DNA of 21,239 nucleotides from Elainellaceae cyanobacterium (lineage in GTDB: Bacteria; Cyanobacteriota; Cyanobacteriia; CAZCXK01). Position numbers and translations under genes: made by a program. This document shows, piece after piece, positions 404-19,569 of this stretch. Location of the stretch: assembly GCA_051117555.1 (NCBI GenBank), contig JBNPEG010000161.1, positions 1 to 21,239 of the forward strand. Direction: 5' to 3'. How positions within the stretch are numbered: position 1 is the stretch's first letter; the number at the start of each line of letters is the position of its first letter. Under the pieces are notes generated by a model. It made no database searches. It saw nothing but the letters and a program-made list of their open reading frames with translations, and was not told the DNA's origin.

Positions 404-1660
404 TTAAAACCTCAATCGATGACGAAAGTTGGCGACAGATTCGACTAAACCAATGGCGATGAAGTTAGTTAATAAAGCCGATCGCCCATAACTGACCCAG
501 GGCAGAGGAATACCAGTCACCGGAGCCAGACCAATCGTCATACCAACGTTTACTGTCACTTGGAACACAATCATCGACAGTACTCCAATTGCCAGCAAAG
601 ATCCGAAATTATCCTTGGCATTTTGAGCAATGATGACCAGTCGCAGGCAAATCAACCAAAAAACAACCAGCACTGTAAAACAGCCGATGAAGCCTAATTC
701 TTCACCAATAGCTGAAAAAATAAAATCGGTATGCTGTTCTGGAATGAAGTTGAGCTGAGTTTGAGTCCCTTGATTTAATCCCCTACCCCAGAGCTCTCCT
801 GCACCGATTGCGATGCGAGATTGAATCAGATGATATCCACCGCCTAGCGGATCTTTATCAGGATCGAGAAATAAAATGAGGCGATCTTTTTGATAATCTT
901 TCAGCAATCCCCAAAAGATTTTCCCCAATTCTCCCGAAATCAGATTGATGACTGCCGCCCCTAATGCACCAATCCATTTCCAGGGCAAGCTGATCCAGGC
1001 GATCGCCACTATGATTGATAGCCAAATAAACCACCCTGGCAAAAATAAGCTAAACAAAATCGCAGACACTAAAGGAGATATCAGCAAAATTAGCCAGCCT
1101 GGATTTGCATTTGCCCAATAGAGCATGCCTAGAGTAATCGCCCCAAACACAAGTGAGGTGCCCAAATCAGGCTGCAGAAAGACTAACCCCCACGGCAAGG
1201 CCGTTATCGCAAGAGCTTTGAGTACGGATGGAATCCTAGACGCGGTGCTTTCATGTAGAACACCAGCCAGAGTTATAATAAGCCCTAACTTGGCAAACTC
1301 TGACGGCTGAACGTTAAACCCGAATAGGGTAATCCAGCGCTGTGCGCCCAGTGCATCAGTCCCCACAAACATCACTGCCAAGAGCGACGCGTTGGTAATG
1401 CCATAGATGATCCAGTGCCAACTGATTAGATTCTCATATCGCCAGCGGGCAACAATTAGAGCAATGCCTAGCCCGATTCCGCCCAAAATCCAATGCTGGA
1501 GCCAATAGCCTTCCAATCCTTGATTTAGCTCAGTGCTGCGGATCATTAAACCGCCTAAGGCTGTTAACCCGATTAGCAACACCAGCAAAAACCAATCGAT
1601 TTCTTCCCAGGCTTGGAGAAGAGATTTCCAGGTGATGCGACTCAGTGATCGTTGAAGCAT
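404..1660 (-). CDS. rodA: Rod shape-determining SEDS peptidoglycan polymerase RodA
   Basis: Multi-TM protein with GAQRWI, QPSEFAK, LQPDLGT, GYHLIQSRIAIGAG, PEQHTDFIF, PVTGIPLPWVSYGRS motifs; ATG at 1660 preferred over the upstream start at 1735. Confidence 0.93.
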   Translation of the reverse strand: MLQRSLSRITWKSLLQAWEEIDWFLLVLLIGLTALGGLMIRSTELNQGLEGYWLQHWILGGIGLGIALIVARWRYENLISWHWIIYGITNASLLAVMFVGTDALGAQRWITLFGFNVQPSEFAKLGLIITLAGVLHESTASRIPSVLKALAITALPWGLVFLQPDLGTSLVFGAITLGMLYWANANPGWLILLISPLVSAILFSLFLPGWFIWLSIIVAIAWISLPWKWIGALGAAVINLISGELGKIFWGLLKDYQKDRLILFLDPDKDPLGGGYHLIQSRIAIGAGELWGRGLNQGTQTQLNFIPEQHTDFIFSAIGEELGFIGCFTVLVVFWLICLRLVIIAQNAKDNFGSLLAIGVLSMIVFQVTVNVGMTIGLAPVTGIPLPWVSYGRSALLTNFIAIGLVESVANFRHRLRF

Positions 1661-1795
1661 AGAAAAAGGATAGAGAAGGAAAAACTTAGGGGAAAGCCGG
1701 GAAGAGAGGGATGAGCACTGCAACTTAACCAGCAAAGCTACTCAATATTGAATCCTTCTATCCTTTCACCTAACCCCTAGTATTAATATCTTCGC

Positions 1796-2869
1796 CTATG
1801 CTAACGCTGCAACAGAAACTTGTGCGGCAACTTTTTGGGCGATCGCCTTCAAGGATTTTGCAGATGCCGAATCAGGGCGATCAATCACAATCGGCACGCC
1901 ACTATCCCCACCTTCTCTCAGCGGAATTTCTAGTGGAATGCAGCCTAAGAGCGGCAAGTTTAATTCCTGAGAAGTCTTCTCACCCCCACCCGATCCAAAA
2001 ATATCGTATTGGCGATCGGGCAAATCCGGCGGAATGAAATAGCTCATATTCTCAACAATCCCCAACACAGGCACCTGTAACTGCTGGAACATTCGCAGCC
2101 CGCGACGAGAATCAAGCAACGAAACATTCTGAGGCGTCGTCACAATCACAGCACCGGCCATCGGCACGGCCTGCGCCATAGTTAGTTGAGCATCCCCTGT
2201 TCCTGGAGGCATATCAACAATCAGATAATCGAGTTCGCCCCAGTTCACCTGATAGAGAAACTGACGGATGATGCCATTCAACATCGGACCTCGCCAAACG
2301 ACGGGTTGATCTGGATCGATGAGAAACCCCATTGAAACCAGCTTCACGCCGTAATTGAAGGCGGGCTCTAAAATTTGTCCCTGCGAACCTTCTTGTACGG
2401 TCACGTTAGCGTTTGCCAAACCCAGCATGGTTGGCACATTCGGACCATAAATATCTGCGTCAATCATGCCCACCGATGCGCCTGCTTCAGCTAGGGATAC
2501 GGCAATATTGACGGCAACGGTGCTTTTTCCGACGCCACCCTTACCACTCGAAATCGCCACTATATTTTTGACACCCTCAATTCCCTGGCGATCGGGTAGC
2601 GACTTTTGTTGAGGCGTTTCGGCAGTCACCTCAATATCAACAGTTTCAACGCCAGGCAACGTTCGGACTGCCTTTTCGCAATCTTCAACAATAAATTCTC
2701 GCAGTGGACACGCAGGCGTCGTTAAAACGAGCGTAAAGCTCACTTTACCCTCATCGATGCCAACATTTCGAATCATGTTCAGATCGACAAGGCTTTTTTG
2801 AAGTTCTGGATCTTGGACAGGACGCAGTATGTCTAAAACGGAACGAATATCAAGAGTATTAGCCGTCAT
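1796..2869 (-). CDS. mrp: Mrp/ApbC/NBP35 family Fe-S cluster carrier ATPase
   Basis: N-terminal DUF59-like segment (VQDPEL, LTTPACP), SGKGGVGKST Walker A, DADIYGP, WRGPM, DMPPGTGD, GIVENMSYF. Confidence 0.93.
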   Translation of the reverse strand: MTANTLDIRSVLDILRPVQDPELQKSLVDLNMIRNVGIDEGKVSFTLVLTTPACPLREFIVEDCEKAVRTLPGVETVDIEVTAETPQQKSLPDRQGIEGVKNIVAISSGKGGVGKSTVAVNIAVSLAEAGASVGMIDADIYGPNVPTMLGLANANVTVQEGSQGQILEPAFNYGVKLVSMGFLIDPDQPVVWRGPMLNGIIRQFLYQVNWGELDYLIVDMPPGTGDAQLTMAQAVPMAGAVIVTTPQNVSLLDSRRGLRMFQQLQVPVLGIVENMSYFIPPDLPDRQYDIFGSGGGEKTSQELNLPLLGCIPLEIPLREGGDSGVPIVIDRPDSASAKSLKAIAQKVAAQVSVAALA

Positions 2870-3006
2870 AAAAAAATTTCCTTGCCACCAATGTCAAGGT
2901 TCCTGTCCTCATCTTATCGTTAGCTCATGTAAGTTCAGGGTTTGTAATATCTATATACGTTTCAACACACGATACGGCGCGAGGCAACGTGCGATCGCCC
3001 CTAATC

Positions 3007-3603
3007 TCATATCAACCCCTGCCCTACCGTAAAAACCACAATAATCGTACCCAGCAGATCTTGAAAGTTGCTTTTGACAAACTTTGGACGCTCGCCGCAT
3101 TCAGGTTGATTTTGCTGGGCAGCATGTTCAGCAGCATGGGCAAGCTTGGCAGGCACCTTAGCGGCATACCCTCGAATCACAGACCAAATCAAAGGCGAGA
3201 GCCATCCACGAAGGGTCACTGAATACGATACCCGTGCGCCGCATACCGCCGATTCAATGCGGTAAATCACCCGCTCTTCAACCCCAGGAATTGCCATAAT
3301 TCGAATACTGAGAAGCTCCATGGGGCGAACACGTTCAACAAAAATACGAATGGGAATTGGCCCCAATCGCGTCATGGCCTGATAAATCAATCCTGGCTTA
3401 GGAATTAAACCGTTTGGCACATTGGTACTGGAAATCAGCGGATGCCAAGAGACATCTGCCAAATTTACAATTTTGCGCCACAACTCATCAACTGATGCTG
3501 AACTGACGGCTTGATACGTTCCTGCCAGTGGGCGAAACCAGCCTATTGGTTGCCAGCCTATTCGTTTATTGAGGTGACTAAATTTAAACCAGCAGCCCAG
3601 CAT
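3007..3603 (-). CDS. SRPBCC/START-like family protein
   Basis: 198-aa ORF; SASVDELWRKIVNLADVSWHP and a C-terminal long helix fit the SRPBCC pattern; GGAAGGAGG SD-like sequence upstream. Confidence 0.7.
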   Translation of the reverse strand: MLGCWFKFSHLNKRIGWQPIGWFRPLAGTYQAVSSASVDELWRKIVNLADVSWHPLISSTNVPNGLIPKPGLIYQAMTRLGPIPIRIFVERVRPMELLSIRIMAIPGVEERVIYRIESAVCGARVSYSVTLRGWLSPLIWSVIRGYAAKVPAKLAHAAEHAAQQNQPECGERPKFVKSNFQDLLGTIIVVFTVGQGLI

Positions 3604-7764: not shown

Positions 7765-8157
7765 TGGTCACATTCCATCAAACTTTTTTCACATTAATTT
7801 AGGTTGTGCTGTGGACATTTGCTTTGCAGCAAAGCAAGCCTCCGCTCAGCCCTTTCGAGTATCTGAATGCCCCCATCTGAGACGATGGACGTTCGCTAAA
7901 CAAGCCATCGATTCAGATAGGCAAGACGTCTGCCCCGCACTCGTTGGCTCCGACCATTGAATTCTGGATGGACGAGGTCGACTTGGGTCAGTTGTTCAAC
8001 CGCTCGTGGCGATCGCCCAATGTCAGCATTCCTCGGATCAGCTCAACAGAAATGAGTGTGAGCTACTGAGTTGATTTGGGTCAACGAGGTTTATCACACC
8101 ACTGCTATCCCCAATCCCGTTGAAAATATCGAATCAATTCTCAACTCAAGAGCACCT

Positions 8158-9261
8158 ATGCATAAAATTCCCGTGACCGTGATTACCGGATTTCTTGGCG
8201 CAGGCAAAACGACCCTCGTGCGTCACCTATTGCAAAATGCTGAAGGGCGACGTATCGCCGTTTTAGTCAATGAATTTGGCGAAGTTGGCATCGATGGCGA
8301 CCTGCTTCGATCATGCCAAGTATGTGACGATGACCCCAGTACTACCGATTCGATCCCGTCGTCCAACTCGACGATTCAACCCAGGATTGTAGAACTAACC
8401 AATGGATGTTTGTGCTGCACGGTTCAGGAAGAATTTTTGCCCACGATGCAAATCCTATTGGAGCGACGCGATCAGCTTGACTGTATTGTGATTGAAACCT
8501 CCGGTTTAGCTCTGCCTAAGCCGCTGGTGCAAGCCTTTCGCTGGCCTGAAATTCGTAATGGTGCAACCGTGGATGGAGTCATTACCGTGGTTGATTGCGA
8601 GGCGATCGCCCACGGCACATTTGTGAGCGATGTCGAATCTCTCGATGCTCAACGGCAGGCTGACCCAAACCTAGACCACGATACCCCCATCGAAGAACTG
8701 TTTGAAGACCAGCTTGCCTGCGCTGACTTAGTGCTATTGACCAAAACTGACTTAGTAGAGGGTGAAACTCAGGCAGCCGTTCGGCAACAGCTTCATGACC
8801 AGCTTCCAAGCAGCGTCAAAGTGGTCGCATGCGATCGCGGAACAATCAGCCCAGATGTACTGCTGGGGTTCAATGCTGCGGTTGAAGACCAAATTGATCA
8901 GCGCCCCAGTCACCACGACCATGACGATGACCACGACCATGATGACTCCATCACCGCCGTGCAAATTCTGCTTGACCAGGCCTTTGATCCGGGTCGGCTT
9001 GTTCAATGCCTGCAATCCTTAGTCCAAGACTGTGACATCTATCGTATTAAAGGATTCGTTGCCGTTCCCAATAAACCTATGAGACTGGTGCTCCACGGCG
9101 TTGGGAAACGGTTCGATCATTTCTACGATCGCCCCTGGCAGGCGTCCGAGACTCGCCAGACAAAACTTGTATTCATTGGGCATAATTTAGATCAGGCTCT
9201 GATTGAAGCCGCTATTAGTGCTGCTCGTGCAGAAACAATTGAGGCGATCGCATCATCATAA
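8158..9261 (+). CDS. cobW: CobW (COG0523 G3E metallochaperone GTPase)
   Basis: KIPVTVITGFLGAGKTT, VNEFGEVGIDG, ELTNGCLCCTV, IETSGLALP, His/Asp tract HHDHDDDHDHDD, IYRIKGF; downstream of a B12 riboswitch; ATG 8158 preferred over TTG 8071. Confidence 0.93.
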   Translation: MHKIPVTVITGFLGAGKTTLVRHLLQNAEGRRIAVLVNEFGEVGIDGDLLRSCQVCDDDPSTTDSIPSSNSTIQPRIVELTNGCLCCTVQEEFLPTMQILLERRDQLDCIVIETSGLALPKPLVQAFRWPEIRNGATVDGVITVVDCEAIAHGTFVSDVESLDAQRQADPNLDHDTPIEELFEDQLACADLVLLTKTDLVEGETQAAVRQQLHDQLPSSVKVVACDRGTISPDVLLGFNAAVEDQIDQRPSHHDHDDDHDHDDSITAVQILLDQAFDPGRLVQCLQSLVQDCDIYRIKGFVAVPNKPMRLVLHGVGKRFDHFYDRPWQASETRQTKLVFIGHNLDQALIEAAISAARAETIEAIASS

Positions 9262-9919: not shown

Positions 9920-11923
9920 ATGGTTAGAGGCAAACAACCAGAACGGTATCCACAACACCCAAGACGTCAACCTTCTCAAGGTTCTTCGTCAAACCGAACA
10001 CCTCACACGATTGCTAAGGGGTATTCTCAGGAAAACCTGACAGTATCTCAGCGGGGTTATCCGCCATCTGACCCATCGAGACGCGCCCCTCGCTCATTTC
10101 CGGGCTCAAAACTTGTCAAGACGTGGCAGTTTTGGACAATTTTTGGAATGGCGTTCATTACTGGCATCGGCGGTTTCTCTGCTGCTTTACTCTTTAAGAT
10201 TCCAGCCTTACCCAACTGCCCGTCTATTTTTTGGCCCACTGCCTCAGCCTCGCTCCGGATTTACTGTGCCGAACTCGCAGCCAATAAAGACACGGTAGAT
10301 GATCTGTTGCGGGCGATCGCCCTCGTTGATGGGCTTCCCAGCGATCATCCCTTGCGTTCTGACATTAATCGCAACATCGAAACCTGGTCGAATCAAATTC
10401 TCGACCTAGCTCAACAGACATTCCATGAGGGCGATTTAGACAGCGCCGTTCGCATGAGCCGCCGTATTCCTGCGAGCACGCCTGCGTATTCAGTCGTGCA
10501 AGAGCGAATCGAACGCTGGCAATCGATCTGGGCAGAGGCGGAGCGCATTTACCAAAACGCTGAAACCGCTATTTTCAATGAAGATCTAAAAGGTGCATTT
10601 TCAACGGCTGTGCAGTTGCTAGCGGTAGGCAATCGCTATTGGGAAACCACTCGCTATGAAGAACTCATCGCCCTGATTAATACATCACGAGAAGAAAGTG
10701 AGGTATTAACTCAGGCTCGCAGATTGGCACGACGGGGAGGACTATCCAACCTATTAGAAGCCATTAAGCTGGCAAAGAAAGTTGATCCTGAAAGCCATCT
10801 CTACCCAGTAGCTCAGCGAGCGATCGCAGAGTTTGGTAAAGACCTGTTTACATTAGGTATCGGGGCTCTTGATCGCTATGATTATGATTTAGCCCTTTCG
10901 GTGGCGCGGCAAATTCCGCCAGATATTGACCTGCGAGCCGAAGCGCGAGATTTGACCGAGCTTGCTCTCGCCCAGCGGCAAGCCTCCTACGGCACTATTT
11001 CTGACCTTGAGTCTGCCATCATTCAAGTTCAACGGCTCGGGCGCGATCGCCCCCTTTACAGCGAAGCGCGACAGCTTGTCCGCCGATGGCAGCTTGAAAT
11101 TCAGGATGTGAGCCGTTTGCAAATGGCACGTCGGATTGCAGAACCCGGAATGGTCGATGACTTAAGAGCGGCCATTGCCGAGGCAGAATTAATTCCTAGA
11201 AACAATCCTCGCGGCGACGAAGCTCAAGAGGCGATCGCCAAGTGGACGACCGAAATCCAAACCACTGAAGACCAGCCCTATCTCGACCGTGCCAACGAAC
11301 TCGCTCGGGGTGGCGGTGTGGTTTCCTTAGAGGCGGCTATCGAAGAAGCTAGTCGCATTCGAGAGGGGCGGGTTCTCTATCCGCAAGCTAATCGCCGCAT
11401 TACGGAATGGCAAGCCGAAATCCAGCGCATTCAAGACCGTCCGTATCTCGTCGAAGCGCGGCGGCTTGCCAATCAAGGTAATTTGACCGAGGCGATCGCC
11501 ACTGCTGAGCAAGTTCAGCCAGGACGTGCCCTATCGGAGGACGCTCAAAATGAGATTAGCCGCTGGCGTTCCCAGGCCCAAGGGGATGCTCAGCTTCAGC
11601 GTGCCTACGAAGCGGCCACTATTCCAACCCCGGCATCGTTAGTATCCGCCATTCGCCTCGCCGATCAGGTGCCATCTGACAGCCCGTCGCGAGCTGAAGC
11701 AAATCGCATGATTAACTTCTGGAGCCAGAATATTCTAGATGCCGCTCGGAGCATGGCAAGTCAAGACTTGGAGCAGGCGATCGCCGTTGCCGAAATGGTG
11801 CCAACTCGCACAGACGCCTACGCAGCTGCTCAACTGCAAATTGAGAGTTGGAGCGGGCAGTTAAATCCAAATCCGGTCATTCCAACCGTCGAAAACTCGG
11901 TGACTCCGACTCCAGAAAGGTAA
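9920..11923 (+). CDS. Conserved cyanobacterial single-pass membrane protein with helical repeats (often loosely annotated chromosome segregation ATPase)
   Basis: GAGG SD; disordered basic N-terminus, TM helix (WQFWTIFGMAFITGIGGFSAALLF), PNCPSIFWP..RIYC, repeated LA..G.L..AI..A....PLY..A...I..W units; no Walker A seen. Confidence 0.75.
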   Translation: MVRGKQPERYPQHPRRQPSQGSSSNRTPHTIAKGYSQENLTVSQRGYPPSDPSRRAPRSFPGSKLVKTWQFWTIFGMAFITGIGGFSAALLFKIPALPNCPSIFWPTASASLRIYCAELAANKDTVDDLLRAIALVDGLPSDHPLRSDINRNIETWSNQILDLAQQTFHEGDLDSAVRMSRRIPASTPAYSVVQERIERWQSIWAEAERIYQNAETAIFNEDLKGAFSTAVQLLAVGNRYWETTRYEELIALINTSREESEVLTQARRLARRGGLSNLLEAIKLAKKVDPESHLYPVAQRAIAEFGKDLFTLGIGALDRYDYDLALSVARQIPPDIDLRAEARDLTELALAQRQASYGTISDLESAIIQVQRLGRDRPLYSEARQLVRRWQLEIQDVSRLQMARRIAEPGMVDDLRAAIAEAELIPRNNPRGDEAQEAIAKWTTEIQTTEDQPYLDRANELARGGGVVSLEAAIEEASRIREGRVLYPQANRRITEWQAEIQRIQDRPYLVEARRLANQGNLTEAIATAEQVQPGRALSEDAQNEISRWRSQAQGDAQLQRAYEAATIPTPASLVSAIRLADQVPSDSPSRAEANRMINFWSQNILDAARSMASQDLEQAIAVAEMVPTRTDAYAAAQLQIESWSGQLNPNPVIPTVENSVTPTPER

Positions 11924-15195: not shown

Positions 15196-15672
15196 TTACG
15201 ACACATTTCCAAAGCGATCGCGAAAATCGGCTGCCAGCATATCCCCCGCTGCTTCGACTAATTTTCCGACAATCGGATGCACCACGACGCTAGTGACAGC
15301 CCCCGCAAACGTCGGCATGTGGTTTGTGAACCAAGCTTTGACTGACTCCATGGTGGCGAGATCGGGTTGCCCCGTTTCGATCGCATCTTCGAGCTCATCG
15401 ATTTTTTCGAGTGCCTCCGTTTTTTGCTCCGTCGGCGCTGCGGCTGCAATTTGGGCCCTAAGACCTGCAAAGATGCGCTGCAACACAGCTAAATCAGACT
15501 CAGCGACTGGAGCACGATTCTGATACAGCGATTGATGATGCCCCCGACCTCCCAAAGTGAGATTTAAGCCGTGGACATTGTCAATTTGCATGTTGTGGCT
15601 GCCAACCGCAACTCGGTTATTCTGAGACTGGGTGAAATTAAACGTATTGCCATTCGATTGAGAAGGGTTCAT
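15196..15672 (-). CDS. Small hypothetical protein: N/Q-rich RHIM-like N-terminal motif + alpha-helical C-terminal domain
   Basis: 158-aa ORF, AGGA SD 9 nt upstream, co-oriented and 111 bp downstream of the STAND gene; shares its N-terminal motif with that gene. Confidence 0.85.
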   Translation of the reverse strand: MNPSQSNGNTFNFTQSQNNRVAVGSHNMQIDNVHGLNLTLGGRGHHQSLYQNRAPVAESDLAVLQRIFAGLRAQIAAAAPTEQKTEALEKIDELEDAIETGQPDLATMESVKAWFTNHMPTFAGAVTSVVVHPIVGKLVEAAGDMLAADFRDRFGNVS

Positions 15673-15783
15673 GGGGGGCGTTCCTGGTTGAGAGTATTTG
15701 AGTGCGTGAAGTCTTCAAAAGAAATCTGTTAAGGGACGATGCCCCCTGATTTGGGTGATGACGCGATTTGCCTAACTCAGATA

Positions 15784-18700
15784 TTAGATAGGACCTTGAT
15801 TGCCGTCAGGCTGAACGATCACAGTAATCGTCGCGGTCGCTGCCTGACTGCCATCGCTGACGGTATAGCGGAAACTATCCTGCCCTGAGAATCCGCGATT
15901 GGGAGAATACACAACAGCAGTGCCGCTGATGGTGGCAGACCCATTTTGAGGAGCCGTCAAATCGATGATCGTGAGGCGATCGCCATCTGGATCATCATCA
16001 TTACTCAACACATTTACGGAAACTGGCTGAAAATAGGGTGTCGTAACCTGATCATCTTGGGCGTTCGGCGGACGGTTTGCGGGGGGGTCGACCGTGACGG
16101 TGACGGTTGCCGTATCCGTTCTGCCGAGAGCATCGCTCAGCGTATACTGGAACGAATCTTGCCCAGAGAATCCCGGGTTAGGGGTGTAGATGATTGAATT
16201 GCCGCTGATGGTTGCCGTTCCGTTGGCAGGAGAGGTGGCATCAGAAACGGTTAGGCGATCGCCACTCGGATTCTGGTCATTGCTGAGAACATCGATAGAC
16301 ACTCGCGTTTCATAGGGCGTAGTGGCCTGGTCATTGCGAGCCGATGGTGGAGTAGATGCGGTGACGGTCACTGACACCGAACCGGTTGCGGTGCGTCCTT
16401 GAGGATCTCTCACCGTATATTGAAACCGATCGCGTCCTGAAAACCCCTGTCGGGGCTGGTAGATGGCAACCCTGCTTGAGGTTAGTTCAACTGAACCATT
16501 CTGCGGTGGTGTTGAAATAGTAACGCTCAGGTTGTCTAAATTAGGATAAGAATTGTTTCGCAGTAGGTCGAGGCGGGCGGCCTCTCCCGACCCCGTTTCT
16601 AGGGTGTAATCGGGCGCTGTGGGCGCAGGTGATGTGACCTCAACGGTGACAGTGCCCGTGGCGGATTGGCCTTGGTTGTCACGAATTTGATAGGTGAAGC
16701 GATCGCGTCCTGCAAAGTTCTCGTTTGGGGTATAGACGATCGTGCTGCCGTTGGCGGGCTGAGCCGTTCCGTTTTGTGGTGAATTCTCGACTCGAATCAC
16801 CAAATTGCCCGGATCGGGATACGGATTATCTCGCAGCACATTGACCTGGACGGGGGAGTTGATTTGCGTTGAGGCTTGATAGTCGCGCGCAGTCAGGCGA
16901 GGAGCCGCCATTTGAATCGTCACGGTGCCTGTGGCGGTCTGCCCAGATGGCGCTGTCAATCGATACTGGAAGCGATCGCTGCCTCCAGAAAATTGCTCGC
17001 TGGGAGTATAGGTAATCGTGTTGTTAGAGTTGACGGTTGCTGTGCCCCGCTGAGGCTCTGCGGCAATGCTTACCGACAGGCGGTCGCGCCCTGGAGACGG
17101 ATTTTCAGCCAGCACATTCAGGGTCGTTGGCGTTCCGTAGCGAGTCTCATAGGTGAGGTCAGCCGCCGAAAGCTGGGGCGGATTGACGGTAATCGTCACC
17201 GTGCCTGTGGCCATGCCGCCTTGGCGATCGCTAACCGTATAGGTCAACTGGTCTTGTCCAAAAAATCCGGTATTGGGCGTATAGTTGATGATCTGTCCAT
17301 TTCGGCTGACGTCTGCCGCTCCATTCTCTGGAGGGGTTTCGAGGGTGACGGTCAGCTCATCGCCGTCTGGGTCGCGATCGTTTTCTAAGACGGCAATCTG
17401 AGTTGGCGTATTGTATGCAGTTGACGCCGTGTCATTTGCTACCTCTGGCGCCGTATTTTCACTTTGATCAGGACGCACAATCACGGTCACCGTAGCGCGA
17501 TCGCGATTTCCTGCACTATCTTCAACTAAATAGGTAAACTGATCGATGCCAGAAAAGCCCGGTTCTGGCCCATAAAACACCGTGCCATTTTCGATGAATG
17601 CGGTGCCGTGGCGAGGTTGAGATACCTCTAACAAAGTAAACTCTCCCGCAACGGGCGTTTGATCATTGGCTAAGACATCAATCTCAACGGGCGTAAATGA
17701 TTCCGACGAATCATCAATCATCATTTCGTCATCGTTTGCGGTGATCGTCGTGCCCAGTTGCGGCCTAGCCATCGTGAACCAAATGACGGCACCAGCGATC
17801 GCCCCACCGATGATTAACGGCAGCAAAAATATGAACCACCGAAGCGCTGCTGGCTTGCGAGGCGGGGGTTGCGCTTCGTCTTCCCAATGCATCCCCGAAA
17901 TGACTTGGGTCGCAGATGGAGGTGGCACGACTTCTGCGGGAACGAGTTCACCTGATTCGGTAGCGTCTGGCAAATGTGGCGCAGGCAGATCGATCGGAGC
18001 GGGATCGTCAGGGGCATCAACTGGAAGCAGCACCAAATTTAAGTTGTGGCGCGTTACCGCAGCCCCGACCTGATCACCCAACCGCTCTCGAATTTCGAGC
18101 GCTTGAGAAAGATAGGTATACGCTGCATCCCCGTCTTCAAGGCACAGCGCTCGGCTGCCTAATTCGTGCAACGCCCAGGCTTCTATAGCAGAATCTGAAA
18201 GCGATCGCCCGGCCAGCAGTGCCCAGTCTAACGCCGTTGCCCACAGCCCCCATCGCTTGCTCAGCGCCAACGATGGCTCAATCAGCTTAATAAGCCGCAG
18301 CGCCTCGATCCATCGCCCTGATTTCACGGCCCAGTCGAGGCAATAAAACAACCCGTCTGCCTCTTCCAAAACGAGATCCGCCGTTAGAGGAGTCTGCTCA
18401 GCCCAAGTGGTGTATTGAATCAGCGTTTGCGATCGCGCTGGGTCGAGATTCAGCCCTTCTGCTAATACGGTTGATAATGAGTCATGAACTCCGTATCGCT
18501 GACCGTCGCTGACCACCACGTTACGCTCAACCAGCGACGCTAAATCAAGCTCTAAGTCAGACTGATGAGTCATCGCTGCGACCCATCGTGCCAATAACGC
18601 AATTCCTGGAACCGCTGACAAGGTTGCAAGCACCAGTCGCTGAGGCTTTGAAAGCCGTGACCAGATGTGCTGGATGAGTGACTTACGGGGAGCGGATGAC

Positions 18701-19569
18701 TGAATTGTTTGAATGATTTCGTCAAACGACACGCCGTCGACTTTGATGTGCCCAGTCGCATAGAGCAGGTCTTGAGGATGCCCCTCTAGCAGGTGCCATA
18801 GCGTTTCAGCCGCAGGAATTTCATCATCGGAAATCGATCGCCGCAGGTCTTGTTCCATGAGGGCGATCGCATCATTGAGCGACACCCCCCGCAGCGGCAT
18901 CGAGTTGCCCTCGCCCCAGAGATAGCGACGGGGCGATGCAAGCAAAAAGACGCAATCAGGCACCGCATTCATCAACGACTCTAAATCGTGGCGGTGTGAG
19001 TCGGTCGCTTCACCATCCCGATGCGGCTGATCGTCGAGCAAAATCAAGGCTCGTTTAGACTGTAGATAGTGACGAATCTGCTCAACAGTGGGCTTGTAGG
19101 CTGGGTCGCTGTCATAGAAAGCGTCAAACAGCGATTGCAGCCGATCTGGCGTCGTTTGATGGGGTGAATCCAGATGCACTGCCCCCGCAGCAAAGGACGC
19201 CGTCACCTGCGGCTGATATGCTAAGTGTCGCAGCAACACCGATTTGCCTAGCCCAGACGCACCGTAGAACTCAACCGACTGTCCTGATTCGATGCTGGCG
19301 ATCGCCTCGTTAATTTCATCGCGTCGCCCAACCAGGTGAAGAAACGGACGGGGAAGCAGCATAACAGGCAGAGGACGAGGCTGCGCCAGATCTTGGTCTG
19401 CCGTGTGAATATTAATCTCGCCGCCATGAATAGAGCCGATCTGGATGTTGTAGTGACCGACGATGAGATGATTATTGGCCCCAAGAGACTGCGTTCCGTT
19501 GTCGTGAACGGGATGAGACTGGCGATCGTCTTGAGTCATACGAGCATCATTTTGAATCTGGTGAGGCAT
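15784..19569 (-). CDS. Membrane-anchored STAND/NB-ARC-like ATPase with TPR, TM helix and seven cadherin/Ig-like (Big_9-type) repeats
   Basis: LVGRRDE, Walker A GASGLGKS (aa103-110), Walker B ALILLDD, GHP (GxP), TPR-like AWALHELG..YLSQALEIRERLGD, Pro-rich linker, TM about aa578-600, 7 repeats of about 92 aa with Y.P..GF.G.D.F.Y...ATVTVTV. Confidence 0.88.
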   Translation of the reverse strand: MPHQIQNDARMTQDDRQSHPVHDNGTQSLGANNHLIVGHYNIQIGSIHGGEINIHTADQDLAQPRPLPVMLLPRPFLHLVGRRDEINEAIASIESGQSVEFYGASGLGKSVLLRHLAYQPQVTASFAAGAVHLDSPHQTTPDRLQSLFDAFYDSDPAYKPTVEQIRHYLQSKRALILLDDQPHRDGEATDSHRHDLESLMNAVPDCVFLLASPRRYLWGEGNSMPLRGVSLNDAIALMEQDLRRSISDDEIPAAETLWHLLEGHPQDLLYATGHIKVDGVSFDEIIQTIQSSAPRKSLIQHIWSRLSKPQRLVLATLSAVPGIALLARWVAAMTHQSDLELDLASLVERNVVVSDGQRYGVHDSLSTVLAEGLNLDPARSQTLIQYTTWAEQTPLTADLVLEEADGLFYCLDWAVKSGRWIEALRLIKLIEPSLALSKRWGLWATALDWALLAGRSLSDSAIEAWALHELGSRALCLEDGDAAYTYLSQALEIRERLGDQVGAAVTRHNLNLVLLPVDAPDDPAPIDLPAPHLPDATESGELVPAEVVPPPSATQVISGMHWEDEAQPPPRKPAALRWFIFLLPLIIGGAIAGAVIWFTMARPQLGTTITANDDEMMIDDSSESFTPVEIDVLANDQTPVAGEFTLLEVSQPRHGTAFIENGTVFYGPEPGFSGIDQFTYLVEDSAGNRDRATVTVIVRPDQSENTAPEVANDTASTAYNTPTQIAVLENDRDPDGDELTVTLETPPENGAADVSRNGQIINYTPNTGFFGQDQLTYTVSDRQGGMATGTVTITVNPPQLSAADLTYETRYGTPTTLNVLAENPSPGRDRLSVSIAAEPQRGTATVNSNNTITYTPSEQFSGGSDRFQYRLTAPSGQTATGTVTIQMAAPRLTARDYQASTQINSPVQVNVLRDNPYPDPGNLVIRVENSPQNGTAQPANGSTIVYTPNENFAGRDRFTYQIRDNQGQSATGTVTVEVTSPAPTAPDYTLETGSGEAARLDLLRNNSYPNLDNLSVTISTPPQNGSVELTSSRVAIYQPRQGFSGRDRFQYTVRDPQGRTATGSVSVTVTASTPPSARNDQATTPYETRVSIDVLSNDQNPSGDRLTVSDATSPANGTATISGNSIIYTPNPGFSGQDSFQYTLSDALGRTDTATVTVTVDPPANRPPNAQDDQVTTPYFQPVSVNVLSNDDDPDGDRLTIIDLTAPQNGSATISGTAVVYSPNRGFSGQDSFRYTVSDGSQAATATITVIVQPDGNQGPI

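Follow-up and report, generated by a model that had tools for sequence, protein, structure and literature searches.

Small prokaryotic effectors that share a motif with an adjacent NLR are among the closest described counterparts of the locus analyzed here. Bell and Bab proteins carry their helical domain at the N-terminus and the motif at the C-terminus, as far as these systems are described (10.1101/2020.01.06.895854; Bab/Agp, 10.1101/2024.11.07.622273). In a published figure example, the effector gene is located upstream of the NLR gene. BASS motifs have a reported compositional bias, being rich in G, N, Q, V and I and poor in K, P and L (Dyrka et al., 10.1101/2020.01.06.895854). "Transmembrane STAND ATPases" have been named, in passing within one sentence and a figure, as sensors fused to Pepco-associated proteases (10.1101/2025.11.14.688446).

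The window, i.e., the whole stretch of DNA analyzed, comprises 21,239 nt from an Elainellaceae cyanobacterium. It codes for a STAND protein which, together with a 158-aa protein, forms a two-gene unit:

15784..19569, minus strand: STAND gene, whole ORF (ATG start, 1261 aa), coding for a transmembrane NB-ARC/TPR protein with a Big_9 ectodomain
15673..15783, minus strand: intergenic spacer of 111 nt between the stop of the STAND gene and the start of the small gene (from the coordinates)
15196..15672, minus strand: small partner gene (158 aa), directly downstream of the STAND gene

From the N- to the C-terminus, the STAND protein consists of a short beta-motif, an NB-ARC/Apaf-1-like STAND module, about eight TPR-like helices, a linker, a hydrophobic helix and Big_9/cadherin-like repeats. 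We read it as a receptor-like bacterial NLR with N-in/C-out topology, which would be linked through its N-terminal motif to a small helical effector, in a way akin to amyloid signalling but with the order of the parts reversed. The probability of this reading is roughly 0.5, while the architecture, topology and family membership described below are assigned with high confidence. An earlier note on this DNA had the gene layout right but was incomplete, having overlooked the conserved N-terminal motif and the downstream gene that shares it.

The cytoplasmic half

18454..19335, minus strand: NB-ARC-type NTPase module (NBD, helical domain and winged helix), aa 79-372 (AF2 pLDDT >90, Foldseek)
19240..19263, minus strand: Walker A, GASGLGKS, aa 103-110 (sequence and family alignment)
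19030..19050, minus strand: Walker B, ALILLDD, aa 174-180, with LILLDD at aa 175-180 (sequence and family alignment)
18028..18444, minus strand: short TPR-like helical array, aa 376-514 (eight helices in the AF2 model)
17851..18027, minus strand: disordered Pro/acidic linker, aa 515-573 (composition and AF2)

The Pfam NB-ARC model (PF00931) matches weakly (E 9.1e-5, 22.3 bits versus a cutoff of 23.5). This cutoff is exceeded in relatives (e.g., P0249 with 40.9 bits and P0230 with 38.9 bits). The fold is clearer. An AlphaFold2 (AF2) model of aa 1-623 (pLDDT 84.8, pTM 0.78) retrieved Apaf-1 (3sfz, E 3.3e-11) and the archaeal STAND-TPR protein PH0952 (6mfv, E 8.9e-11) upon a Foldseek search, with NRC2 and CED-4 also among the matches, which bears out the earlier assignment of the N-terminal half as a STAND module. 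For the NB-ARC module, a profile search against the PDB also led to 6mfv (E 3.4e-6). The NB-ARC-like motifs pointed out before are intact, and G106, G108 and K109 of Walker A as well as D179 of Walker B are invariant in the family alignment (A2, 61 sequences). GHP (aa 263-265, with P265 invariant in the 61-sequence alignment) and VHD (aa 361-363, but with RYSL as the family consensus) are located at what we take to be the positions of the GxP and MHD-type motifs, respectively.

Pfam assigns only a single weak TPR_12 domain to the following region (aa 464-510). The array matches the TPR of LGN/GPSM2 (E 1.3e-5) and is the best-conserved region of the STAND protein, with 72.7% sequence identity to the relative P0122, compared to 59.5% for NB-ARC. 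The "about two" TPR-like repeats previously counted are too few because the model has eight helices, which is nearer to three or four hairpins. The linker was described as having about 60 residues; it has 59, including 15 Pro, 6 Asp and 5 Glu, and is disordered in the model (pLDDT 40-55).

Membrane topology and exchange of the ectodomain

17770..17838, minus strand: single predicted transmembrane helix, aa 578-600 (hydropathy and model helix)
15787..17742, minus strand: seven Big_9/cadherin-like repeats, aa 610-1261 (Pfam, NCBIfam and repeat boundaries)

The transmembrane assignment is based on hydropathy and on the AF2 model. Residues 578-600 form the sole strongly hydrophobic window of the protein (Kyte-Doolittle (KD) 19-aa mean 2.39), and a helix is modelled at 574-600. 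Three K/R residues occur in the 15 preceding positions and one in the 15 following ones. The N-terminus is polar and leads into the folded ATPase, and there is no signal peptide. One transmembrane helix preceded by basic residues, and the absence of an N-terminal signal peptide, had already been noted and are in agreement with these data.

The cytoplasmic half retrieved 891 cluster representatives (E<=1e-30), 151 of which were examined for a transmembrane segment by hydropathy. In 140 of them, one hydrophobic segment is located just past the TPR, and 48 of 50 STANDs that adjoin a small-family gene have a single transmembrane segment. The 140 segments follow the positive-inside rule, with a mean of 1.81 K/R on the N side and 0.79 on the C side (N>C in 92 relatives, N=C in 27 and N<C in 21). 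The N-in/C-out topology proposed earlier is thus also predicted from the family, and the best reading of these sequence features is a single-pass membrane protein with a cytoplasmic ATPase half.

For the part beyond the membrane, seven cadherin/Ig-like repeats had been reported, and seven Big_9 stretches are indeed found by Pfam (E 9.2e-130), with a period of about 92 aa over aa 610-1261. The NCBIfam tandem-95 repeat (NF012211) also matches (E 8.3e-95), and repeats 2, 6 and 7 contain an ND.DPDGD-type or ND.NPSGD-type motif. This rod would lie in the cyanobacterial periplasm.

Homologs with the same N-terminal half and swapped ectodomains, the search for which had been suggested, are abundant. 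Among 100 scanned representatives out of the best 150, the ectodomain is of the ASH/HYDIN/Cep192-type Ig (PapD/ASH-like) kind in 20, LysM in 10, Big_9 in 7, FN3 in 4, CARDB in 2 and CBM96 and PD40 in one each; one representative has a TIR domain and lacks a transmembrane segment, and in 54 of the 100 no named ectodomain was detected. Six PASTA domains are present in a STAND that adjoins a small gene (L030). LysM and PASTA are typical extracytoplasmic peptidoglycan-binding domains. The protein is therefore not a singular fusion to an "adhesin", as it had first appeared, but belongs to a large family whose ectodomains are of many kinds, the Ig array being just one of them. What lies past the membrane is an exchangeable module, while the cytoplasmic cassette is constant and consists of the N-terminal beta-motif, the NB-ARC STAND NTPase and the short, highly conserved TPR. 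This family with swapped outer domains is large and barely described. In one relative (P0207), a trypsin-like peptidase (Trypsin_2) is fused N-terminally, followed by NB-ARC and FN3, which argues that the N-terminus is the effector end.

The partner gene and the common motif

19399..19500, minus strand: N-terminal beta-motif of the STAND protein, aa 24-57, with the core NNHLIVGHYNIQIGSIHGGEINIH (common to the downstream small protein)
15553..15639, minus strand: N-terminal motif of the partner, aa 12-40, with the core NNRVAVGSHNMQIDNVHG (alignment with the STAND motif)
15211..15501, minus strand: five-helix domain of the partner, aa 58-154 (AF2 and invariant columns)

The partner belongs to no family named in Pfam, NCBIfam or PADLOC, and 153 homologs were found. 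Its N-terminus is disordered (pLDDT <50 for aa 1-53), and AF2 places helices at 58-78, 81-99, 105-118, 120-130 and 133-154. The hydrophobic segment H132-P-I-V-G-K137 is invariant. The most hydrophobic window of the protein reaches a KD value of only 1.48. With the helical domain as the query, Foldseek returned nothing at E<=1e-3, and VIA returned generic bundles (Z<=7.7), with known pore-formers unmatched.

The two proteins have a motif of about 20-25 aa in common (13 of 31 residues identical, BLASTP E 9e-5), which forms short strands in the model of the STAND protein (pLDDT about 68-75). The divergent variant found here is restricted to these two proteins within the 6.06-Mb genome. Across the family, aligning each STAND locally with its small protein gives the motif as the best match in 45 of 50 pairs. 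Compared to the whole proteins, it is enriched in G (16.8%), N (7.5%), Q (8.8%), V (18.4%) and I (10.0%) and depleted in K (1.1%), P (0.3%) and L (1.8%), a count with some circularity, as a regular expression was used to choose the segments.

Seen from the small gene, the pairing is tight. A STAND homolog ends just before it, on the same strand, in 48 of the 52 loci with at least 3 kb of upstream sequence, and these 48 span seven phyla (taxa as given by the records). In related pairs, the two genes are for the most part 9-22 nt apart. Orphan small genes, with no STAND, were encountered at three loci (L002, L043 and L074). The reverse pairing is weak, with a partner within 3 kb in only 8 of 41 STAND-seeded loci. 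These eight are among the 22 loci where the STAND has the motif, versus none of the 19 where it does not. The partner is absent genome-wide from three of the six STAND-bearing cyanobacterial genomes (G013, G017 and G019, which are 99-100% complete). The two motifs are of the same sub-type in 42 of 50 pairs, and none of the pairs combines different types, while the distances of the STAND cytoplasmic module correlate with those of the small-protein C-domain (Mantel r 0.858 for 44 pairs, a value that none of 2000 permutations attained), both results being confounded by shared ancestry. On balance, we lean towards a coupling of the two proteins through the motif. The 14 motif-bearing STANDs without an adjoining partner imply that the motif must have a further role that does not depend on the partner; it could, for example, be a structural hairpin at the STAND's own N-terminus.

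Proposed mechanism and alternatives

A cue received by the ectodomain (candidates are the state of the envelope or peptidoglycan, cell contact or an incoming particle) would be passed on via the transmembrane helix and the TPR. Nucleotide exchange by the NB-ARC module would follow, and then oligomerisation in the plane of the membrane. The N-terminal motifs, once clustered, could then draw in the corresponding motif of the small protein or act as a template for it, by homotypic beta-pairing that may be amyloid-like, as it is in NLR/BASS signalling. The helical domain of the small protein would be the output, most likely acting on the membrane. The odds that the trigger is extracytoplasmic are about even. 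Cell death or defence as the output is less likely than not, and templating of the amyloid type between the motifs is rather doubtful. Several results speak against the reading as a whole, among them the many STANDs with no adjoining partner, the orphan small genes, the lack of short-range divergence of the ectodomain, a helical domain that matched no known pore-former, the absence of a PADLOC match and a neighbourhood of housekeeping genes.

Taken to its full extent, this reading becomes an "outside-in" NLR. A ligand or a mechanical disturbance of the periplasmic rod (LysM, PASTA or FN3 modules taking its place in relatives) would cause a resistosome-like assembly of the NB-ARC modules at the membrane, followed by prion-like templating of a new type of helical membrane executioner, i.e., a transmembrane amyloid-signalling death switch. 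This full version is speculative and, with all its parts, unlikely. If true, it would merge the logic of a surface pattern-recognition receptor with that of an NLR, which are two separate receptor classes in eukaryotes.

The ectodomain might instead be an anchor or positioning device, attached to peptidoglycan, the outer membrane or septa, while a cytoplasmic or membrane-proximal trigger, such as a phage protein at entry, is read by the TPR and NOD in an Avs-like manner. LysM, PASTA, CBM and Ig-type domains bind walls or surfaces, and the TPR is present as the most conserved region of the STAND. To our knowledge, those STAND proteins of bacterial defence that have been characterized detect phage proteins in the cytoplasm. 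Short-range hypervariation of the ectodomain is not seen, as between close orthologs it has diverged no further than the cytoplasmic portion (91% versus 88% sequence identity), so that there is no arms-race signature at short range. However, the TPR, with about 140 aa, is short and hardly varies within the family, unlike the variable ligand-binding arrays of Avs, and extensive swapping is the pattern expected at the sensor end. A PADLOC scan of the STAND protein gave no defence-system match, the best hits being DndF (E 0.0014) and a TPR model (0.03). We consider an anchor unlikely, though the least so of the alternatives.

It is less probable still that the protein works from the inside out, with ATP-driven oligomerisation of the STAND clustering or activating the surface Ig/cadherin-like arrays for adhesion, filament or aggregate formation or envelope organization, and with the small protein as a regulator. 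The repeats are adhesin-like, and models of the BapA/LapF and CshA types match below their cutoffs (for the adhesin model NF045619, 79.8 bits, far under the cutoff of 180). The family occurs in filamentous or aggregate-forming organisms (Leptolyngbya-like cyanobacteria, Chloroflexota, Streptomyces and Nocardia; taxa as given by the records), and the neighbourhood of the locus consists of housekeeping genes. In a diderm, however, an array that faces the periplasm and is held in the inner membrane would have to cross the outer membrane before it could reach other cells, and ectodomains of the LysM, PASTA and PD40 types are not adhesins. Trypsin or TIR domains in relatives, which are typical of conflict systems, and the patchy distribution (6 of 41 related genomes) also speak against this option.

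Equally improbable is a role of the small protein as a negative regulator or cap, its motif mimicking the N-terminal hairpin of the STAND and blocking self-association until released. A degenerate version of the motif persists in STANDs from genomes that lack the partner altogether, and the motif is also present at the 14 partnerless loci mentioned above, which suggests that it is primarily a STAND-intrinsic element copied by the small protein. Yet the small protein is most conserved in its C-terminal helical domain, with the HPIVGK segment invariant, which argues for an activity beyond capping, and orphan small genes persist without a STAND.

Apart from the unusual architecture, nothing favours an artefactual merger of a cytoplasmic STAND gene with a secreted adhesin gene through an assembly or frameshift error, and this case of two separate genes, which the earlier note had allowed for, is refuted in practice because the fused frame is conserved, being uninterrupted (no stops) in one relative (G002, 1270 aa) and full-length in another (L001, 1264 aa), while the layout is equivalent in 140 of 151 relatives and the C-terminal half lacks a separate signal peptide.

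Comparison with known systems

Apaf-1, CED-4, plant NLRs and PH0952 likewise have a P-loop NTPase with a helical domain and a winged helix, and then helical repeats, and Walker A and B are intact here. The known members, however, are soluble cytoplasmic proteins which bind their ligand with long repeat arrays, whereas the cyanobacterial STAND has a short conserved TPR, after which come a transmembrane helix and a large predicted extracytoplasmic domain.

Adhesins of the BapA/LapF class and the CshA type have the same type of repeat as the ectodomain. The STAND protein differs in being devoid of a signal peptide or secretion signal and in having its repeat array C-terminal to a transmembrane helix and a cytoplasmic ATPase.

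The layout of receptor kinases of the PknB/StkP type is alike, with a cytoplasmic enzyme, a juxtamembrane linker, a single transmembrane helix and wall-binding repeats outside. PASTA domains, which these kinases carry, are found in the STAND family in L030, with LysM in ten relatives. There is no homology, and the cytoplasmic enzyme of the STAND is an NTPase switch rather than a kinase.

With the Pepco-linked proteins, STAND ATPases bearing a transmembrane segment have already been noticed in Actinobacteria and cyanobacteria (10.1101/2025.11.14.688446), and P0207 may be of this kind. The cyanobacterial STAND has no protease, and the portion of that report available to us describes neither ectodomain diversity nor an N-terminal motif or a 158-aa partner.

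In the Bell/BASS-NLR pairs, too, collinear adjoining genes code for an NLR and a small helical protein, with a beta-prone motif of 20-25 aa common to the latter and the NLR N-terminus. The motif of the STAND pair is likewise rich in G, N, Q, V and I, and the taxa overlap (Cyanobacteria, Actinomycetota and Chloroflexota, as given by the records). This likeness is one of layout and composition as described for Bell/BASS. The NLRs described with Bell/BASS are not transmembrane proteins, unlike this STAND, and the order in the partner is reversed, with the motif N-terminal (aa 12-40), the helical domain C-terminal (58-154) and the gene downstream of that for the STAND.

Architecture of the STAND protein

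The window is the full length of contig C225 in a cyanobacterial assembly of 6.06 Mb. It codes for a protein that belongs, by fold and motifs, to the NB-ARC clade of STAND NTPases and carries an array of Big_9 repeats beyond a membrane helix. The locus is surrounded by Thf1, HemF, PanB, PanE and FtsW-type genes (Pfam). The relevant features are:

15784..19569, minus strand: gene for the STAND protein, 1261 aa
17770-17838, minus strand: the single strong hydrophobic segment (aa 578-600, by hydropathy)
aa 515-573 of the STAND protein: linker of 59 aa with 15 Pro and 11 acidic residues
15196..15672, minus strand: gene for a partner protein of 158 aa, which starts 111 nt downstream of the STAND gene on the same strand

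Pfam assigns seven Big_9 repeats (E 9.2e-130), and NCBIfam detects a tandem-95 repeat. The Pfam match to NB-ARC is weak (E 9.1e-5, 22.3 bits, with a cutoff of 23.5), as are those to nSTAND6 (E 2.5e-4) and TPR_12 (E 0.0021). Three K/R residues precede the hydrophobic segment and one follows it. The earlier note had described this gene as an NLR-like ATPase fused across the membrane to an adhesin-like array, and this observation is confirmed as a whole. All listed elements were found except for the number of TPR-like repeats. TPRs are present, but "two" is an undercount because the AlphaFold2 model has eight helices at aa 376-514.

That the N-terminal half is a STAND module, as had been proposed, is supported by structure prediction. 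The AlphaFold2 model of aa 1-623, built from a 61-sequence alignment, has a pLDDT of 84.8 and a pTM of 0.78. Foldseek ranks full-length Apaf-1 (3sfz) first (E 3.3e-11); next come PH0952 (a STAND-TPR protein from an archaeon), NRC2 from tomato, and CED-4. A family profile searched against PDB sequences also retrieves PH0952, at E 3.4e-6, along with an NB-ARC protein from a plant. Residues G106, G108, K109, D179 and P265 are invariant in the alignment.

The protein was also considered as a secreted adhesin, which was dismissed because an export signal is absent. Assignment to a known defence system was dropped, as a PADLOC search gave no support. A promoter and terminator scan yielded counts at or below the shuffled expectation.

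Two further genes of the window are mentioned here. The product of the gene at 8071-9261 (plus strand) is a GTPase of the CobW/G3E family, whose insert rich in His and Asp (HHDHDDDHDHDD) is typical of metallochaperones; this gene adjoins that for a pterin-binding DUF4346 protein. The gene at 9920-11923 (plus strand) has a product of 667 aa, in which a single hydrophobic segment (near aa 70-90) and a long stretch of helical repeats were noted. Pfam assigns it to no family above the cutoff and gives only a weak PLU-1 match.

A family with exchanged ectodomains

When aa 1-577 were compared with 1.84 billion cluster representatives, 3601 matches were obtained at E<=1e-3, of which 891 remain at E<=1e-30. 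Fusion of the NLR across the membrane is thus not a unique case, the family being large (at least 891 sequence clusters). The best 150 representatives range from 494 to 1649 aa in length, and their matches cover approximately aa 33-530. Together with the query (n=151), they were surveyed for membrane helices. A segment with KD>=1.6 occurs within 160 aa past the TPR region in 140 of the 151 proteins, and the tail past the helix has a median length of 366 aa. The positive-inside rule is obeyed, with a mean of 1.81 K/R on the N-terminal side of the segment versus 0.79 on the C-terminal side (more on the N-terminal side in 92 proteins, the same number on both sides in 27, fewer in 21).

Homologues with the same N-half but swapped ectodomains, which the earlier note had envisaged, do exist (Big_9, Ig-type, LysM, FN3, CARDB and others).

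Table. Domains past the helix in 100 of the best 150 representatives (Pfam; our own tally)
Big_9/cadherin: 7 of 100
ASH/HYDIN/Cep192/DUF1573-type Ig: 20 of 100
LysM: 10 of 100
FN3: 4 of 100
CARDB: 2 of 100
CBM96: 1 of 100
PD40 propeller: 1 of 100
TIR, no TM segment: 1 of 100
Nothing named past the helix: 54 of 100

One STAND protein encoded next to a partner gene (locus L030) has six PASTA domains. Domains of the LysM and PASTA types bind the cell wall on the extracytoplasmic side. Because they lie opposite a folded ATPase, and given the positive-inside bias, the proposed topology with the N-terminus inside and the C-terminus outside is supported as far as sequence allows. Hypervariation of the ectodomain was considered and dropped: among close orthologues, identity is 91% in the ectodomain versus 88% elsewhere in the protein. 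With ectodomain conservation on a par with that of the remaining protein, diversity is attributed to domain swapping rather than to local hypervariation.

Several family members have additional domains. Six proteins (P0140, P0147, P0161, P0185, P0209 and P0215) have N-terminal double zinc ribbons (DZR, Zn_Ribbon_1, DUF7577) ahead of the N-terminal motif described below. P0207 (1633 aa) has a trypsin-like peptidase at its N-terminus and also contains FN3 repeats in addition to the STAND core. P0167 (641 aa) has a C-terminal TIR domain and is devoid of a TM segment. These two may be "all-in-one" effector versions. The STAND proteins of the Streptomyces and Nocardia loci (L037-L076) are about 700-830 aa long, with an ectodomain of about 200 aa that has no Pfam match at E<=1e-8.

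A small partner protein with a shared motif

The downstream gene for the 158-aa partner was missing from the gene picture of the earlier note. Its product has no named family in Pfam (E<=0.01), NCBIfam or PADLOC. At E<=1, Pfam reports a weak DUF4404 match in 66 of 90 family members (best 1.1e-4, under the cutoff). An identity as TCAD2 (Atlas score 0.91) was not reproduced by Pfam and was rejected.

The partner shares a short N-terminal motif with the STAND protein, its aa 12-40 aligning to STAND aa 24-54 (13/31 identical, E 9e-5). There are 153 homologues of about 140 aa each. They consist of the N-terminal motif (consensus I.A.I.GDVSGQVAVG..I.Q), a helical middle part and an almost invariant C-terminus (GAVTSVVVHPIVGKLVEAAGD...EFR.RFG.). 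In the AF2 model (pLDDT 65), aa 1-53 are disordered and five helices span aa 58-154. This fold had no Foldseek match in the PDB at E<=1e-3, a wide VIA-align search returned only generic helical bundles (Z<=7.7), and the family profile matched PDB sequences only as coiled-coil noise. Complex prediction for the partner with STAND aa 1-380, which extends to the start of the TPR region (aa 376-514), scored 0.02 and speaks neither for nor against a contact.

A search for longer fused forms of the partner found none, which is weak evidence. Homologues of 211 aa (P0006, P0012 and about 30 others) have an extra N-terminal coiled-coil of about 70 aa before the motif. Another cyanobacterium (L083, G007:C20) codes for a 620-aa multi-TM pentapeptide-repeat protein (1465-3327, minus strand). 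It ends in a G/N/S-rich beta-type stretch followed by a helical region; this terminal part as a whole weakly matches the partner profile (E 1.9e-6). Therefore, the motif-plus-helix cassette may be modular.

Linkage of the two genes

Contigs were scanned for the partner gene at one genome per species, resulting in 76 loci.

Table. Taxonomic distribution of the 76 partner-gene loci (from record titles; our own phylum assignment)
Actinomycetota: 27
Chloroflexota: 22
Cyanobacteria: 13
Gemmatimonadota: 6
Pyrinomonadaceae: 4
Bacteroidota/Rhodothermales: 2
Dadabacteria: 1
Without group assignment: 1

At least 3 kb upstream of the partner gene was available for 52 loci, including the window. A STAND homologue on the same strand ends right before the partner gene in 48 of these; gaps are mostly 9-22 nt in related pairs. 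In the exceptional locus L035, the STAND frames are fragmented, while L002, L043 and L074 are orphans. The orphans have no adjacent STAND gene and have housekeeping neighbours (Na/H exchanger, glyoxalase, FMN reductase, arginine decarboxylase, NAD kinase, Rrf2).

A TM segment is found in 48 of 50 STAND proteins encoded next to a partner gene. In 45 of 50 pairs, the motif is the best local alignment between the partner N-terminus and the STAND region preceding Walker A; in the other five, the STAND frames are truncated or fragmented. Motif sub-types (canonical, actinobacterial VVVG..N.V, a type with a two-residue insertion and two cyanobacterial types) are concordant in 42 of 50 pairs, and cross-type pairs do not occur. 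The window variant (..VG..N.QI..[VI]HG) is found in exactly two frames genome-wide, the STAND protein and its partner. The distance matrices of the two proteins are correlated (Mantel r 0.858 for 44 pairs after six were dropped as truncated; reached by 0 of 2000 permutations). Because related genomes share all labels, this concordance reflects co-inheritance and does not prove co-evolution.

Linkage was also analyzed from the STAND side, with an outcome that points in the opposite direction. The N-half retrieved 80 metagenome loci, 41 of which cover the complete STAND frame plus 500 bp or more of downstream sequence. A partner gene is present within 3 kb in eight, and all eight STAND proteins have the motif. 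The motif occurs without a partner in 14 loci, and 19 have neither. Among 41 related cyanobacterial genomes, six code for the STAND family (G000, G002, G013, G017, G019 and, with two copies, G039) and four have a high-scoring partner gene (G000, G002, G003, G039). Thus, three complete genomes have a STAND protein without partner and one, G003, has a partner without STAND (none found genome-wide at E<=1e-20). The partnerless proteins from G019, G013 and the second G039 copy (L165, L167, L168) start with an additional domain (about 120 aa, of the type LLAAARRGD..AIA.L..), followed by a degenerate motif (.Q[IV]A[IV]G.LMTY). As STAND proteins exist without a partner, some keeping the motif, the partner is an accessory confined to a single sub-group, and the motif must be important for the STAND protein itself as well.

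Proposed mechanism and significance

The finding thus extends to a large family of receptor-like NLR proteins and to a partner that shares their motif in one sub-group. What the data show are the architecture, the conservation of the TM segment, the exchange of ectodomains, the pairing of the two genes and their common motif; the steps that follow are a proposal. A cue at the ectodomain would be passed through the TM helix and the TPR region and would trigger NB-ARC oligomerisation. This would cluster the N-terminal motifs, which may recruit or template the partner, so that its helical domain could act.

The prevailing view of NLR/STAND receptors is that they sense signals inside the cell. In this family (at least 891 sequence clusters), the NOD module would reside behind the membrane, with interchangeable wall-binding and Ig-like domains outside. 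The NLR principle would extend to extracytoplasmic surveillance, and the family would provide a tractable model for a signal that crosses a single TM helix and switches a STAND ATPase.

Comparison with known systems

In the literature searched, we found one passing mention: "transmembrane STAND ATPases" are named among the sensors fused to Pepco-associated proteases in the part of the preprint that was available (10.1101/2025.11.14.688446). Ectodomain diversity, motif and partner family were not described there or elsewhere in the search, though bioRxiv supplements may list members. A string search for the motif and for HPIVGK retrieved no paper. Available parts of Aravind-group papers report fusions to TM segments and cadherins for NTPase systems different from the present one, and those of a 2026 STAND survey mention TM solely in a figure legend.

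The pair would work like the amyloid-signalling pairs Bell/BASS-NLR and Bab/Agp, as far as these are described in the accessible text of two preprints (10.1101/2020.01.06.895854, 10.1101/2024.11.07.622273). The motif is enriched in G (16.8%), N (7.5%), Q (8.8%), V (18.4%) and I (10%) and depleted in K (1.1%), P (0.3%) and L (1.8%), a count that is partly circular; the same bias is reported for BASS motifs in the accessible text of the former preprint. However, the order of motif and helical domain in the partner is opposite to that described for Bell/BASS and Bab/Agp, and the gene order is also reversed relative to one example in a figure. Since the domain order is a defining BASS/Bell feature, the pair was not filed as a member. 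The motif-sharing partner would represent a second, reversed NLR-to-effector layout. The layout of the STAND protein parallels that of PASTA receptor kinases.
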